A DNA stretch of 36,155 bases, from the IMG/VR virus record IMGVR_UViG_3300030708_001253, positions 1-36,155 of that record; one strand, written 5' to 3'. The position numbers and the translations under genes are program-made. Shown piece after piece: positions 29,786 to 35,722 of the stretch (its first letter is position 1; each line of letters opens with the position of its first letter). The stretch comes from a virus (Duplodnaviria; Caudoviricetes). The notes beneath the pieces were generated by a model, which worked only from the letters and a program-made list of their open reading frames with translations, searched no databases and was not told where the DNA came from.

Positions 29786-29995
29786 ATGGCAAAAGCAACT
29801 GCACAGACAAACAAGGATCTAATAAATAAATTAGATAAAGAGATCGCATTAATTAAAAAAGATATAAGTGTTATAAAATCAAATCATCTTTTTCATATTG
29901 AGAAATCAATAAAAAATATACAGATGATTATTTGGACAGTTGGATTTGCTGTGTTCACCAATCTTATTTTATTAGTTAGAAATCTATTGGTTTGA
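29786..29995 (+). CDS. Small protein with C-terminal TM helix (holin/haemolysin-like)
   Basis: IKSNHL.HIE then a hydrophobic helix. Confidence 0.6.
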   Translation: MAKATAQTNKDLINKLDKEIALIKKDISVIKSNHLFHIEKSIKNIQMIIWTVGFAVFTNLILLVRNLLV

Positions 29996-30282
29996 ATAAA
30001 AAACACCAGAAGGGTACTTCTTCTGAATTAGCTGCTGCCAAATATTTAAGCGACAAAGGTTATTATGTATTTTTTCGTTTAAGTGTTACATCACCAGTTG
30101 ACCTGGTTGCCGTTCATTCCAAAAAAAAAGAAGTATTACTTATAGACGTCAAAACAGTTTCTTTACGTTTAACAGGTAAGCATAAAGGTAAAAGAATAAA
30201 CAGGAGAGCTACACCTGAACAAAAAAAATTAGGTGTACATATTTTATATTATTATGGAAATAACAAATTTAAGCTTGATTGA
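29992..30282 (+). CDS. PD-(D/E)xK endonuclease (Hjc resolvase-like)
   Basis: KG..SEL.A..YL...GY.VF, PVDLVA, IDVKT. Confidence 0.75.
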   Translation: MNKKHQKGTSSELAAAKYLSDKGYYVFFRLSVTSPVDLVAVHSKKKEVLLIDVKTVSLRLTGKHKGKRINRRATPEQKKLGVHILYYYGNNKFKLD

Positions 30283-30816: not shown

Positions 30817-31200
30817 ATGTGGCAGTTATTAGCAAAACCATTATTAGGAGTTGTATCTGACGGAGTAAAAAGTTTTGCAGAAACAAAAAAAGCTAAAGCA
30901 GAGCAAAAGGTTTTAGAAATTAAAGCTAAATCTTCTTTAATGGAAAAAAAAATTAAAGGAGAAATTGATTGGGATATAGAAGCAATTAAAGGATCAAAAG
31001 ATTCATGGAAAGATGAATGGATTTTGGTTTTATGGAGTATTCCAATGATAATGATATGGATTCCACCTTTGCAAATATATGTTGAGTCAGGTTTTAATGC
31101 TTTAAAAAACAATGTACCTGATTGGTATTTTTGGACTTGGGGTGCAATCGTATCAGCAAGTTACGGCATCAAAGGTGCAACTAAATTTTTCAAAAGATGA
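30817..31200 (+). CDS. Holin-like membrane protein (SWKDEW family)
   Basis: DSWKDEW, two hydrophobic segments, PDWY...ASYGIKG; follows the lysozyme. Confidence 0.7.
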   Translation: MWQLLAKPLLGVVSDGVKSFAETKKAKAEQKVLEIKAKSSLMEKKIKGEIDWDIEAIKGSKDSWKDEWILVLWSIPMIMIWIPPLQIYVESGFNALKNNVPDWYFWTWGAIVSASYGIKGATKFFKR

Positions 31201-31484
31201 GAAAAGAACATAAAAGTAAAACTGGTGGTTTAACAGCAGCAGGTCGTAGGTACTTTAAAAGAAAAGAAGGTCTGAACTTAAAACCACCTGTTAAGTCTGG
31301 TGATAATCCTAGACGAGCAAGTTTCCTAGCAAGGATGGGAAATGCAAAAGGTCAGGAATACAAAGACGGAAAACCAACTCGATTGTTATTGTCATTACGC
31401 AAATGGGGAGCAAGTTCAAAAGCAGATGCAAGGAAGAAGGCAAAGGCAATCTCGAAGCGAAACAAAGCGAAGAAAAAGAGCTGA
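31197..31484 (+). CDS. DUF6321-like basic protein
   Basis: GGLTAAGR, NLKPPVKSGDNPRRASFLARM, SLRKWG. Confidence 0.75.
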   Translation: MRKEHKSKTGGLTAAGRRYFKRKEGLNLKPPVKSGDNPRRASFLARMGNAKGQEYKDGKPTRLLLSLRKWGASSKADARKKAKAISKRNKAKKKS

Positions 31485-31674
31485 ACAATACTACGAGTTA
31501 TTTCCTGAAAAGAAACCACAAGAATTACCTGGTGGTGAAAAAATGATGGATATTAAAAAAAGAAATCGTCAATGCAAAGAATGTGATCCAATTGATCTTA
31601 TTCTTAATATTGGTGATAAATGGATGTGTTTTAATTGTAAACATAGTCCGTACAGAGAGGATGAATGGATATGA
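31426..31674 (+). CDS. Small Zn-ribbon protein (start uncertain)
   Basis: CKEC...CFNC; stop overlaps the next ATG (ATGA). Confidence 0.55.
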   Translation: MQGRRQRQSRSETKRRKRAEQYYELFPEKKPQELPGGEKMMDIKKRNRQCKECDPIDLILNIGDKWMCFNCKHSPYREDEWI

Positions 31675-31900
31675 CGAAAAAAAAATCACGAGTAAACGAA
31701 GCAGGTAATTATACAAAACCTGCTATGCGTAAAAGATTATTTAATAAAATAAAAGCAGGATCGAAAGGTGGCAGACCAGGACAATGGTCTGGTCGGTGAT
31801 TTCCCCTGTGTCTTTGCACACAGGGGGGATCATTTTAAAACGAAAAGCACAAATGTTAGCCAAGCAGTATAAAGCTGCAGGTGGAGGATATAGAAACTAA
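31671..31900 (+). CDS. DUF5872 N-terminal-like basic protein interrupted by a 47-nt coding gap (bypass candidate or pseudogene)
   Basis: 31671-31796 encodes MTKKKSRVNEAGNYTKPAMRKRLFNKIKAGSKGGRPGQWSGR; 31844-31900 encodes KAQMLAKQYKAAGGGYRN in another frame. Confidence 0.8.
31797..31832 (+). other. 15-bp RNA hairpin beginning with the in-frame UGA
   Basis: TGATTTCCCCTGTGT-CTTTGC-ACACAGGGGGGATCA: 13 Watson-Crick plus 2 G-U pairs. Confidence 0.9.
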
Positions 31901-32031
31901 TGCCAAGAAGATTAAGCAAAAAACAAAAGAAGATTGATGTTGCTAGACCATTTGGAAAAATTACAGCAGCAGACTTTAAAAAATTAGGAAAGAAAAAGAA
32001 TGGCTCTAAAAAAAAGTCAAAGAAGTCTTAA
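31900..32031 (+). CDS. 43-aa Lys-rich microprotein
   Basis: MPRRLSKKQKKIDVARPFGKITAADFKKL...; TAATG overlap with the upstream stop; GGAGG RBS. Confidence 0.7.
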   Translation: MPRRLSKKQKKIDVARPFGKITAADFKKLGKKKNGSKKKSKKS

Positions 32032-32239
32032 AAATTGGACAAAGCAAAAATGGAGAACAAAGTCAGGTAAGAAAAGTAGTGAAACAGGTGAACGATATTT
32101 ACCTGAAGCTGCAATCAAATCTATGACAGCATCCGAATATGCTTCTACTACTAGAGCTAAACGTAGAGATACAAGACGAGGTAAACAACATTCTAAACAA
32201 CCAAAACGCATTGCCAAAAAAACTAGACGATTTAGGTGA
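32000..32239 (+). CDS. DUF5872-like basic protein (C-terminal domain)
   Basis: SLKNWTKQKWRTKSG...ERYLP..AI...GKQ. Confidence 0.8.
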   Translation: MALKKSQRSLKNWTKQKWRTKSGKKSSETGERYLPEAAIKSMTASEYASTTRAKRRDTRRGKQHSKQPKRIAKKTRRFR

Positions 32240-32778
32240 AGCGAACAATCACACAGGATATTTTAACCTGGTCTAAAAATTTTATTGAAAAGCCAAATAT
32301 AAATCTTGGTAACTTGCCAGTATGTCCGTTTGCCAAGAAAACTAGAGAAGAAGATAAATTAAAAATTGTAGAGATAAAAGACTCCAAAGATTTTCTCAAT
32401 GAAGTTGTTGACCAGGCAAAAAAATTTGGCAAATATGATGTTGTCATTGTTGCTTGTGCAGATCTTTACATAACAGCAGACGAATTAAACGATTATGTCC
32501 ATGCTCTTAATAAAGTCTTTGTAAGAGAAGATGTTTATTTAATCGCCAGTTATCCTGACGATGAAGAAATAGATTTCTTAGAAAGTGATGATTTTGAGCC
32601 AGACAATGAATTTTATATGGTTTTGATACAGAGCTATCAAAAGCTTGAAGATGGCAGTTCATCTTTAAGAAAAACTAACTATTACGAGCATTGGTCAAAT
32701 GATTATTTTGCAGATACCGTACTCGTAAGACAACAATACGGAGATATTCATGGCAAGAGGAATGAAGAAAAGAAGTAA
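32236..32778 (+). CDS. DUF1415-like acidic protein
   Basis: W...IE......PVCPFAK motif; YYEHW near the C-terminus. Confidence 0.6.
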   Translation: MKRTITQDILTWSKNFIEKPNINLGNLPVCPFAKKTREEDKLKIVEIKDSKDFLNEVVDQAKKFGKYDVVIVACADLYITADELNDYVHALNKVFVREDVYLIASYPDDEEIDFLESDDFEPDNEFYMVLIQSYQKLEDGSSSLRKTNYYEHWSNDYFADTVLVRQQYGDIHGKRNEEKK

Positions 32779-32857
32779 GAAAAAAGATGGTAAAATGATG
32801 TTTGGCAAAATGGTTAAAGCAAAAAAAGTTACCAAAAAAGGCAAAAAGAAAAAATAA
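32750..32857 (+). CDS. 35-aa Lys-rich microprotein
   Basis: MARGMKKRSKKKDGKMMFGKMVKAKKVTKKGKKKK (18 K/R); GGAGA RBS; TAATG overlap downstream. Confidence 0.65.
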   Translation: MARGMKKRSKKKDGKMMFGKMVKAKKVTKKGKKKK

Positions 32858-33095: not shown

Positions 33096-33185
33096 GGAGA
33101 GTTGGCAGAGTGGTTGAATGCACTAGTCTTGAAAACTAGCATAGATGCAAGTCTATCGAGAGTTCGAATCTCTCACTCTCCGCCA
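33096..33185 (+). tRNA. tRNA-Ser(TGA)
   Basis: Acceptor GGAGAGT/ACTCTCC, G discriminator, encoded CCA, anticodon arm CTAGT-CTTGAAA-ACTAG, long variable arm, GTTCGAATC T-loop. Confidence 0.95.
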
Positions 33186-33200
33186 CAAAAATATTTTTTT

Positions 33201-33372
33201 TATTTTCACTCTATTTTCACTCCTAGCACATAATTTTTCCCAGAATTCCTACCTCAAAAACGGTTTTCAAGACCGTATTTCACCCTTCTAATTTAACAAA
33301 ATCAAGCTATTCTCCCATATTTTCATACCTATTTATACTTCATTTTTTTTCTATTTTATGTTACTTTCACTC
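33201..33372. other. Putative attP (core 33260-33276 with arm-type repeats)
   Basis: Reverse complement of 33260-33276 is ACGGT-CTTGAAA-ACCGT, a tRNA-Ser(TGA) anticodon arm; TATTTTCACTC at 33201 and 33212, TACTTTCACTC at 33362; adjacent to the integrase. Confidence 0.65.
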
Positions 33373-33422
33373 TACATTTACACAATTAAATTTTCTTGTG
33401 TAGAGTAGATAAAGGAGTAGTT

Positions 33423-34646
33423 ATGAAAATTTGGAATGTAACACATCGTGGTAAAAAGGTTTACCAAGTTGTTATAAAATATGAAGATCCTAACGGATTA
33501 ACAAAGATAAAAAAATTCTTACATCCTAAAAGGTACATTGCTATTGAGAATGCTACTAAATGGGAAAAAGAATATAAGAATAAAACACCATCTTTGAGTG
33601 ATAATGGCTATACTATTGGTCATGTAAATACCAAACTTGAAAAAGAATGGGATAAGAGAATAGAGCTAAAACGTCTTGATGTTTTTGATCAAGAAGGTTT
33701 AGAAGAAGATACTGTTGAACGATATAAAGACAGTAGAAAAGCTTTATTTAAAATACTTGGTAATGGTGATGAAAAACAAGCAATTCACTTTCCATTGTCT
33801 AATATTACCTATGAATGGTATTCTGATTTTTTAGATGATATGTTTGCAAAGCATAAATTCTCTAAATCAAAGGCAAAAAGAGTAAGAAACTTTTTAAATA
33901 CTTTGTTGACAAAAGCAGAGCAATTAAACTGGTTTCAATCTCCACATCATAGGTATAAAGAGAAACCAACACAATATAGACCATTGCATCAACCAAGAGC
34001 AATGACACCGAAAGAAGCGAAAAAATTACTTATAAGTTTGGAAAAGACATTTAATAGTGCATTAAATCGTGATGAAATCGGTGATTATTCTGAGAATGGA
34101 TTTGCTCATAAATTTCAGGAATTGTCATTTATATTTATAATTCAATATCCAACTGGCATTCGATGGGGTGAAGCAGCAGGTTTATCTTACGAGGATTTTA
34201 ATTGGCATAACAAAACTATTACAATTAGAAATTCAAGAAATGTTAGAAATAGCAAGATAACACCAACAAAAGCTGCGAAATTGCGTGTCGCTGATGCTAT
34301 GATGGGTGAAAGAATAGTGCCAATACCGAAAAAACTAAAATATTTCTTTGACACATATACTCGTCAGAAATCTATAAAATCAGGTCATTTGTTCGATGTC
34401 GGTTATAAATACAGTTTAGATTATCTTAAATCTAAATGTGATAAACTTGGTTTTGATAGTAGTATCGTTGATACAAAGATGTTTAGACGATTTATTATAT
34501 CAGAATGGCAAAAAAGCGGAGTTGATTCAAGAACAATAGCACTTCGTGTAGGTCATAACGATACAAAGACACAAATTGGCTACGCAACCTTCTCCGATCC
34601 TAATGCACAGCAGGATATGAGCAAATTGATAGCTAGAATTTACTAA
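33423..34646 (+). CDS. int: Tyrosine recombinase / integrase
   Basis: TGIRWGE (R), PTKA (K), KMFRR, VGHND (H), TQIGYA (Y); AAGGAG RBS before ATG 33423. Confidence 0.9.
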   Translation: MKIWNVTHRGKKVYQVVIKYEDPNGLTKIKKFLHPKRYIAIENATKWEKEYKNKTPSLSDNGYTIGHVNTKLEKEWDKRIELKRLDVFDQEGLEEDTVERYKDSRKALFKILGNGDEKQAIHFPLSNITYEWYSDFLDDMFAKHKFSKSKAKRVRNFLNTLLTKAEQLNWFQSPHHRYKEKPTQYRPLHQPRAMTPKEAKKLLISLEKTFNSALNRDEIGDYSENGFAHKFQELSFIFIIQYPTGIRWGEAAGLSYEDFNWHNKTITIRNSRNVRNSKITPTKAAKLRVADAMMGERIVPIPKKLKYFFDTYTRQKSIKSGHLFDVGYKYSLDYLKSKCDKLGFDSSIVDTKMFRRFIISEWQKSGVDSRTIALRVGHNDTKTQIGYATFSDPNAQQDMSKLIARIY

Positions 34647-34717: not shown

Positions 34718-35071
34718 TTAGAAACATTTATGCAAATTATGGAGTTTTCGTAAATATCTTACCAAAGTTGATGCTTGTACCGTTCTTTCATTCTCCATTG
34801 ATGGATAAAGTTTTTTCACTCTAAAAGTTTTCATATCTTTATAAAAAATTAGCATTGCAGGAATTTTGCTTTGCCTAGCCAACTTCATTGTTGCCGTACA
34901 ATTTTTGTATGTTTGACCTTTGTCGTATGCGTGTTCGATCAGTAATAATGGCTGATAACATTTACTGCATACTTCAACCAGGTCTATATCAACAGCAGCT
35001 AAATTATCAATTGTTCTATGCCATTCGTTAAATGGATTACCCTTCTCAAAATAACTATATCTTGGATTCAC
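34718..35071 (-). CDS. Putative restriction-endonuclease-fold protein
   Basis: FNEWHR, DIDLVE, CxxC, PLLLIE motifs. Confidence 0.55.
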   Translation of the reverse strand: MNPRYSYFEKGNPFNEWHRTIDNLAAVDIDLVEVCSKCYQPLLLIEHAYDKGQTYKNCTATMKLARQSKIPAMLIFYKDMKTFRVKKLYPSMENERTVQASTLVRYLRKLHNLHKCF

Positions 35072-35231: not shown

Positions 35232-35508
35232 CTTTATCTAGTAACCAAACCCTAAATCCACTTAAATTGTTGTTTTCATCTTTTATTCTGCGTGAAATAA
35301 CTTTGCCATTCATTTTTTTAGCTCTTTTCTGTAATATTTTTATAAAACTATCTACATTCTGTGGAAGCCATCTAACAGCATTGTGTTTATAAATAAATTT
35401 ATCTCTTGGAAAAAATACACTATCCCCAAAACTCATTTCTCTTACAACTCTCGTATTATTACTTTCTCGTTTTGGTTGCACAGGTATATTTTTTTCTATT
35501 TTAAGCAC
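35224..35508 (-). CDS. Conserved phage protein (IEKNIP...GDS.F...RVW), possibly DNA-binding
   Basis: Motif pattern; operon packing. Confidence 0.65.
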   Translation of the reverse strand: MLKIEKNIPVQPKRESNNTRVVREMSFGDSVFFPRDKFIYKHNAVRWLPQNVDSFIKILQKRAKKMNGKVISRRIKDENNNLSGFRVWLLDKDA

Positions 35509-35722
35509 TTATCCTTCCCTTTTCTGTAAGCTCTATACTTCTCCTGGTATTCTTTAACTTGGTTATGTACCCTCGCTTTTCTAAATAGTTGCAGCTATTG
35601 AAAACACTTGTAACATTTTTAATTTCACAACCTTTTCCTATCTCTTGTAATGTTGGAGAATAACTATTCTCATCCCAAAACTTATTGACATATTTTAATA
35701 TTTTACTTTGTCTTGGTGTCAT
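35501..35722 (-). CDS. LexA-like winged-HTH DNA-binding protein without a peptidase domain
   Basis: MTPRQ..IL...SPTLQEI......SV......LEKRGYI.....RRSIEL. Confidence 0.85.
   Translation of the reverse strand: MTPRQSKILKYVNKFWDENSYSPTLQEIGKGCEIKNVTSVFNSCNYLEKRGYITKLKNTRRSIELTEKGRISA

Follow-up and report, generated by a model that had tools for sequence, protein, structure and literature searches.

A candidate programmed translational bypass across a 47-nt insert in a small gene of a marine phage

A gene starting at position 31671 of a phage genome record raises the question of how a reading frame that is closed by a stop codon and taken up again 47 nt further on, in a different frame, could be made into one protein. 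The record, a 36-kb sequence with 33% GC whose 36,155 nt were analyzed as a whole and are called the window hereafter, encodes terminase, portal, capsid, lysozyme, tRNA-Ser, and integrase. The ORF from ATG 31671 (a second in-frame ATG lies at 31665) closes at 31799 with WSGR and a stop, the Arg codon CGG at 31794–31796 being followed by TGA at 31797–31799. This proximal half (31671–31796, 42 codons) of a PHROG 17747/DUF5872-N gene is followed by an insert in which the TGA doubles as the 5′ end of a predicted 15-bp stem-loop (31797–31832), an AU-rich spacer occupies 31833–31840, and an Arg triplet, CGA, ends the gap at 31841–31843. The distal half (31844–31900, 18 codons), with a predicted second helix and a GGGY end, lies in another frame than the proximal half, and its TAA overlaps the following ATG at 31900; all these features are on the plus strand. 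Deletion of the 47 nt from 31797 to 31843 gives an ORF of 60 codons. A first-pass annotation had laid out this anatomy, the coordinates of which hold, and had proposed a hop of the ribosome from CGG to CGA, a reading favored by the gaps and codons of relatives and by purifying selection acting on the distal half. It is probable (about 0.72) that ribosomes cross the insert by programmed translational bypassing of the T4 gene 60 type.

The arms of the hairpin (31797–31811 and 31818–31832) form 15 pairs, of which two are non-Watson–Crick, both U-G, and additional G-U pairs can extend it to 31795–31834. The hairpin contains 53% GC as against 38% in the flanking gene and 33% in the window, and it is the strongest 45-nt fold of the whole window (z −4.2; none of 200 shuffles was equally good). 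The plus strand folds better than the minus strand, with predicted energies of −37.9 and −30.8 kcal/mol, respectively, in line with the earlier remark on a GC-rich stem suited to plus-strand RNA. A Shine–Dalgarno-like run of six G residues (31823–31828) is located within the 3′ arm. The stretch upstream of the putative take-off codon (31772–31791) is unchanged in all six alleles of the 46/47-nt class; the spacer differs among alleles and is devoid of CGN triplets. CGG itself is an Arg codon nearly unused by the phage: 18 chosen genes have it at none of their 276 Arg codons, and all ORFs of at least 150 aa have it at 2 of 287.

The insert is a genuine part of the genome. Contigs from all four DNA runs, representing four studies, cross it without gaps and with 0–3 differences, and the 47-nt form is present at five metagenome loci. 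Misassembly, which the first-pass annotation had asked to be excluded, is ruled out by these spanning contigs and by the recurrence of the insert on many contigs. No Rfam family was found over the insert, and a search for further copies within the window returned the one copy only. The terminal pattern of the hairpin had eight viral matches, five of them in this gene and three in unrelated contexts without any sign of a split gene.

Relatives with a gap at the same site, a check proposed earlier, do exist. Viral and metagenome contigs were searched with gap-seeking patterns, both flanking peptides being required (91 of 118 metagenome loci were discarded as chance matches outside the family), and 115 distinct gene sequences were obtained, of which 20 have an insert and 95 are uninterrupted; the ratio is not a frequency, since the set was collected by gap-seeking patterns. 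The inserts are 4, 7, 25, 38, 46, or 47 nt long, involve both shifted frames, and sit at one codon (±1), after the Arg of the conserved WS[AG]R/KAQ junction or one codon earlier. The 47- and 46-nt types, sisters that differ by an indel in the loop, have the order CGG, UGA hairpin, CGA; the 38-nt type has GCT, UGA hairpin, GTA, and then AGA; the 25-nt type has CGA, a small hairpin, and CGT; the 7-nt type runs from CGA to CGG; and the 4-nt types run from CGA to CGC or from CGA to TGA. The codon after take-off is UGA in the 47-, 46-, and 38-nt classes and a sense codon in the 4-, 7-, and 25-nt classes, and only weak folds (−3 to −5.5 kcal/mol) are predicted for the 4- and 7-nt gaps. A hop to the last triplet restores WS[AG]RKAQ in all 11 distinct gap sequences, each of which ends in a putatively re-pairable triplet (take-off/landing pairs CGG/CGA, CGA/CGT, CGA/CGG, CGA/CGC, CGA/TGA, and GCT/GTA), so the matched codons expected from the first-pass annotation are retained; landing in CGA/TGA and GCT/GTA would need a single G-U pair, formed at the first or second codon position. 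The interrupted forms recur on many contigs: 99 for the 42-aa product of the window (P0121), 58 and 34 for close variants of it, 21 for the 41-aa form with Ala before the stop, 47 and 12 for the 4-nt TGA tail, and 17 for the 7-nt tail.

The distal half has been kept by selection, as had been predicted for a translated segment. Its pN/pS was 0.083 in the 46/47-nt class (10 pairs; pS ∼0.18), 0.093 in the 4/7/25-nt class (36 pairs; pS 0.47), and 0.20 in the 38-nt class, where the value comes from one pair only, and resembled that of the proximal half. The residues K-A-Q, which lie upstream of any restart Met, showed synonymous changes only in 20 of 20 alleles. Taken together, the low distal pN/pS and the purely synonymous variation of K-A-Q point to translation of the distal half across the gap.

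Programmed bypassing of this insert could proceed as follows. With UGA occupying the A site, the ribosome would stall on CGG, and the peptidyl-tRNA-Arg would release the rare CGG; forward sliding would be favored by the hairpin and by a stem able to close behind the ribosome; and the tRNA would re-pair at the first CGN past the stem, CGA 31841, with decoding restarting at AAA. The product would be a 60-aa protein, as in the uninterrupted sisters, and the remaining ribosomes would terminate to give a 42-aa piece without the predicted second helix.

Several signals known from bypassing were compared with the locus. CGG and CGA agree at positions 1 and 2, a two-of-three match over which the first-pass annotation had hesitated; the worry is eased by the GGG/GGA take-off/landing pairs, with their third-base latitude, that the available text on T4-type cassettes describes (10.1101/2022.08.31.505936). 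All 11 gaps end in a same-box or G-U-near triplet, and the unpaired 3′ part of every gap lacks a same-box decoy triplet, as is also stated for T4-type cassettes in that text (10.1101/2022.08.31.505936). Three pairs of the stem vary among the six alleles and pairing is kept in all six, so the expected maintenance of the stem was borne out, but covariation was not above the shuffle control (345/500). Upstream pairing is discussed as a driver of bypass in the accessible part of another report (10.1101/2024.12.09.627546). The window has a 7-bp stem 5′ of take-off, and a stem of at least 7 bp next to take-off was present in 16 of 20 insert alleles as compared to 9 of 95 uninterrupted ones, a result behind which stand two lineages. 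The 38-nt class fails this measure, the 5′ stem of the window allele did not differ significantly from synonymous recodings (p 0.18), and the difference was lost when 78 nt were considered. A mini Shine–Dalgarno spacing of 5–7 nt, that of T4, fits the 38-nt class alone, the G-run/GGA of the window ending 11–12 nt before CGA. A conserved Tyr in a basic peptide lies 28 codons before take-off, comparable to the KKYK of T4 at 30 codons, and is found in uninterrupted members too. A generic scan of the window for stop, hairpin, and matched codon returned eight rows, seven of them unsupported; as such a motif scan is rich in chance rows, the case rests on homology and selection and not on the motif.

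The insert is rare in an unbiased sample. It was absent from all 70 gene copies (80 loci) beside the partner gene PHROG 14910, the usual neighbor, which in the window lies outside the insert at 32000–32239 on the plus strand, as well as from 17 GenBank phage records; a GTDB scan for interrupted copies also returned none. Near-identical uninterrupted sisters of the window lineage (P0002, P0003, and P0005) are each represented by a single contig, and in the short-gap lineage 109 of 120 best matches are uninterrupted. In the gene tree, the inserts fall into three groups, at least three changes are forced, and none of 200 bootstraps placed them in one clade, which suggests that the inserts arose separately; a single insert clade had an AU p of 0.18 on 135 columns, so one origin stays compatible with the data. 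An Arg at position −7 was considered as a mark of insert alleles and rejected, as uninterrupted kin in the 4/7/25-nt clade have it too; within the window lineage it occurs in none of 13 uninterrupted WSGR matches, yet P0129 has it. A search for further truncated forms mostly returned internal-start calls. Two proteins of a different N-terminal lineage, P0229 and P0253 (seven contigs), carry an out-of-frame tail as in the 4-nt CGC type, which may reflect either a second origin or a transfer of the site, and P0305, a variant of the 38-nt lineage on a single contig, extends into the gap in a different frame and may be either an error or a decayed allele.

Other ways of accounting for the gap have to be weighed against bypassing. 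The insert may simply inactivate a dispensable gene, or damp it as an attenuating terminator, with a distal half that has not yet decayed. Such a reading would suit the rarity of the inserts, the possibly non-essential nature of the gene, the hairpin followed by four U residues in the window, and the shallow time depth of the 46/47-nt class (pS ∼0.18). However, it is at odds with a distal pN/pS of 0.08–0.20 at pS values of up to 0.47, and inactivating inserts would not be expected to gather at a single codon with ends that could re-pair. The terminator, an alternative raised at first pass, found no support: the site is not predicted by a terminator scan, two 46-nt alleles have an interrupted U run, and the other classes lack one; one RNA-library contig, which may be DNA, also continues through the hairpin. 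Knock-out or knock-down of this kind is considered improbable. A programmed −1 or +1 frameshift, with the insert read as extra residues, appears still less probable. The distal frame is open in five of seven insert types (47-, 46-, 25-, 7-, and one 4-nt), most gap lengths are 1 mod 3, and all short gaps start with CGA-C. The sister alleles, though, would need opposite shifts (−1 for 47 nt and +1 for 46 nt), and the −1 shift or restart at GTG 31796 that had been suggested for the window fails in the 46-nt sisters, whose distal half occupies the other frame. CGG is also unable to re-pair at TCG or GGT, the distal frame of the 38-nt gap holds two stops, and the 4-nt TGA type would stop immediately. 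Five of six variable gap codons alter the residue, as judged by eye, and an in-frame insertion at the site occurs in none of the 119 other best homologues.

Termination at UGA followed by re-initiation, giving a separate distal peptide of 15–23 aa, would be in keeping with the DUF5872 domain already being in two parts in these phages, with the G-run and subsequent in-frame ATH triplet of all long gaps, and with the in-frame TTG in the 46/47-nt loop and the ATG at KAQ-M. A G-run that directly abuts a start triplet is, however, too close for initiation, as is the case for ATH here. No start is common to all classes, Met is replaced by Leu in the 7- and 38-nt classes, and K-A-Q is conserved as protein; a split gene is accordingly rated very unlikely. 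Bypassing could also take another route, in which take-off occurs on Gly, the rare CGG being the hungry A-site codon, and landing occurs on a GGG of the 3′ arm, adding four residues. The near absence of CGG from the phage would favor this route, as would the Gly preceding Arg and the in-frame GGG in the stem of the 46/47- and 25-nt classes; but the four extra residues differ among alleles through non-synonymous changes, insertions at this point are absent from the homologues, this route does not suit the 4-, 7-, and 38-nt classes, which are led by Ala, and the Gly is present in uninterrupted sisters too, which leaves the Gly route with very little probability. Removal of the gap, either from RNA as a mini-intron or from DNA by precise excision, is the least probable of the readings. 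A CG repeat on both sides of most gaps and the strong stem are in its favor, yet the 4-nt gaps are below the size of known splicing, and we know of no splicing route that removes 4 nt. No near-identical joined contig was seen among the joints listed for four DNA and four RNA runs, a comparison in which contigs lose rare forms and RNA cover is very thin; the only RNA-library contig over the site retains the gap, which is weak evidence as it may be DNA. Neither the lack of an Rfam family over the insert nor the three of eight viral matches of the terminal pattern that lie outside the gene, in unrelated contexts with no split-gene sign, favors removal.

Why the insert, if bypassed, is kept is less certain. 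By analogy with T4, it would most likely disrupt a long target of a nuclease where the gene is most conserved; the nuclease would then have been lost or be encoded by other phages. Homing endonucleases of the HNH, HNH_3, and GIY-YIG families (PF01844, PF13392, and PF01541) were not found in the window or in four relatives, nor was any homing endonuclease found among the 48 window ORFs and 48 of the 68 listed neighboring ORFs. Damping of expression is an alternative reason, as full-length output would be lowered if some ribosomes stop at UGA. A wider proposition holds that hopping is routine and has evolved repeatedly in abundant marine phages without an adjoining homing endonuclease, that this codon is a hot spot where an upstream stem and a basic nascent peptide unseat the P-site tRNA, and that gaps of between 4 and 47 bases, whether or not a stop is present and with near-cognate landing, are skipped and kept as an expression dial; we put it forward tentatively and regard it as rather doubtful.

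With respect to the gene itself, the proximal half matches PHROG 17747 (E 8e-25), which is its family. The DUF5872 label given at first pass stood in part: Pfam DUF5872 (PF19197) was not matched directly by either half or by full-length relatives, but a fused homologue, L003, scored above the cut-off (29.6 versus 27.5 bits), with two other fused proteins just below it (one of three above). Comparison with fused homologues points to a DUF5872 split into two in these phages, and indirectly identifies the present gene as probably its N-terminal half. A structure model of an uninterrupted relative (pLDDT 85.5) has two helices (17–29 and 41–53), and the gap position corresponds to the start of the second. 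A PDB structure search with this model gave no match (best Z 3.6), and its viral structure matches were unnamed family members from which no function was gained. This small gene could be dispensable, and the ribosome-binding site of the next gene overlaps its last codons. In the fused DUF5872 lineage, six proteins (P0271, P0272, P0284, P0311, P0313, and P0314; up to 18 contigs) stop right before an invariant Trp, which may be due either to another stop-led insert or to UGA read as Trp.

The gene is part of a cluster of very basic small proteins (31197–32857) including DUF6321, PHROG 17747, PHROG 14910, and others, which sits after the lysozyme and PHROG 2524 genes and in which stop-start junctions overlap. 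Further on, the window carries tRNA-Ser(TGA) and then a tyrosine integrase (33096–34646) and a LexA-like repressor (35501–35722); the phage is likely temperate, judging from the integrase and the repressor. Two small nuclease-like ORFs are located at 29992–30282 and 34718–35071, one with a weak NERD match and the other recognized by eye. Of the 78 unrelated genomes hit by a host search with 31 nt of the phage tRNA-Ser, most belong to Selenomonas and Bacteroidota, and none was usable. The terminase is ∼50% identical to those of Pelagibacter HTVC010P-type phages and the capsid ∼41–45% identical to those of various phages, which is too distant for a host to be named.

To our knowledge, programmed bypassing has been shown at the bench in very few cases, mainly in phage T4. 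The marine locus resembles T4 gene 60 in having a putative take-off codon, a stop, a predicted stem-loop from take-off, an AU-rich spacer, and a putative landing codon matched with third-base latitude, along with a candidate 5′ stem, a gap of similar size, and a point of insertion that stays within one codon (±1) in a highly conserved motif. The likeness is one of architecture. Gene and phage group are different, take-off would be on Arg or Ala and not on Gly or Asp, the five genomes yielded no HNH, HNH_3, or GIY-YIG gene, and gap length varies between 4 and 47 nt; some gaps lack a stop after take-off, and two would need a G-U pair. The 50-nt bypass of T4 gene 60 has homologues in myovirus topoisomerase genes according to the available texts (10.1101/2022.08.31.505936; 10.1101/2024.12.09.627546; PMC7026636), and for T4-type cassettes the portion available of one of them describes a UGA in part of the cases, an insertion site that keeps to one codon ±1, and protection from a homing endonuclease (10.1101/2022.08.31.505936). 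A MobA-type cassette is not matched here, as no adjoining homing endonuclease was found, the host gene is not a topoisomerase, and the mini Shine–Dalgarno spacing in the window is off. The mitochondrial byps of Magnusiomyces are presented in the accessible text as hairpin inserts of 27–55 nt that tolerate an imperfect codon match, in 81 copies across many genes and with an unused A-site codon (10.1101/2022.08.31.505936; PMC5009743); in contrast, there is one site per genome in the present gene, and no spread of the hairpin terminal pattern was found.

The search of the open-access literature gave no report of an interruption in this gene or of bypassing in marine phages. Particular to the present case are a small, non-enzyme-like gene, no nuclease found in cis, take-off on Arg or Ala, and an allelic series of 4 to 47 nt at one codon. 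Gap lengths, A-site codons, and landing matches form a natural series within one gene of 60 codons, which is small enough for a direct test of the signals needed and of the shortest possible hop, including natural stop-hop-like cases; the available text of a 2016 review gives natural in-frame stop-hop-like cases as not known (PMC5009743).

Gaps in a terminase gene have a precedent in Streptomyces phage phiHau3, for which the accessible part of the report describes 10-nt gaps whose bypass, with a stop replacing UUA, was demonstrated in E. coli by mass spectrometry (PMC10732093). As far as that part goes, the marine gene is similar in its short gaps, the sense codon in the A site, and a proposed regulatory role, whereas the trigger in phiHau3 is UUA in the A site and here the long gaps have UGA and the short gaps no common rare A-site codon. 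Phage G004, which carries the 7-nt class, has a second gap, of 34 nt, in the terminase large subunit just before Walker B (L434:3870–3906), with the order GGC, UGA-led hairpin, AU spacer, GGC and an exact codon match. Among 80 loci with terminase relatives (L452–L531; 66 parsed and 14 unparsed), 46 were uninterrupted, 15 of the 66 parsed had UGA-led gaps of 26–34 nt in all three frames, with landing on GGY in eight and on AGC in seven, and five had longer hairpin inserts two codons upstream. The terminase gap is a strong, separate bypass candidate, and since an essential gene holds such gaps, these phages must get across them; the AGC landings suggest that near-cognate landing may be tolerated. 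Gene callers cut such genes short in marine viromes, terminases included. Further, in both G004 and G307 a long ORF ends in a stop at a comparable position and is followed by open frames (L449:3318 and, on the minus strand, L450:1476), which may be either a gene end or recoding.
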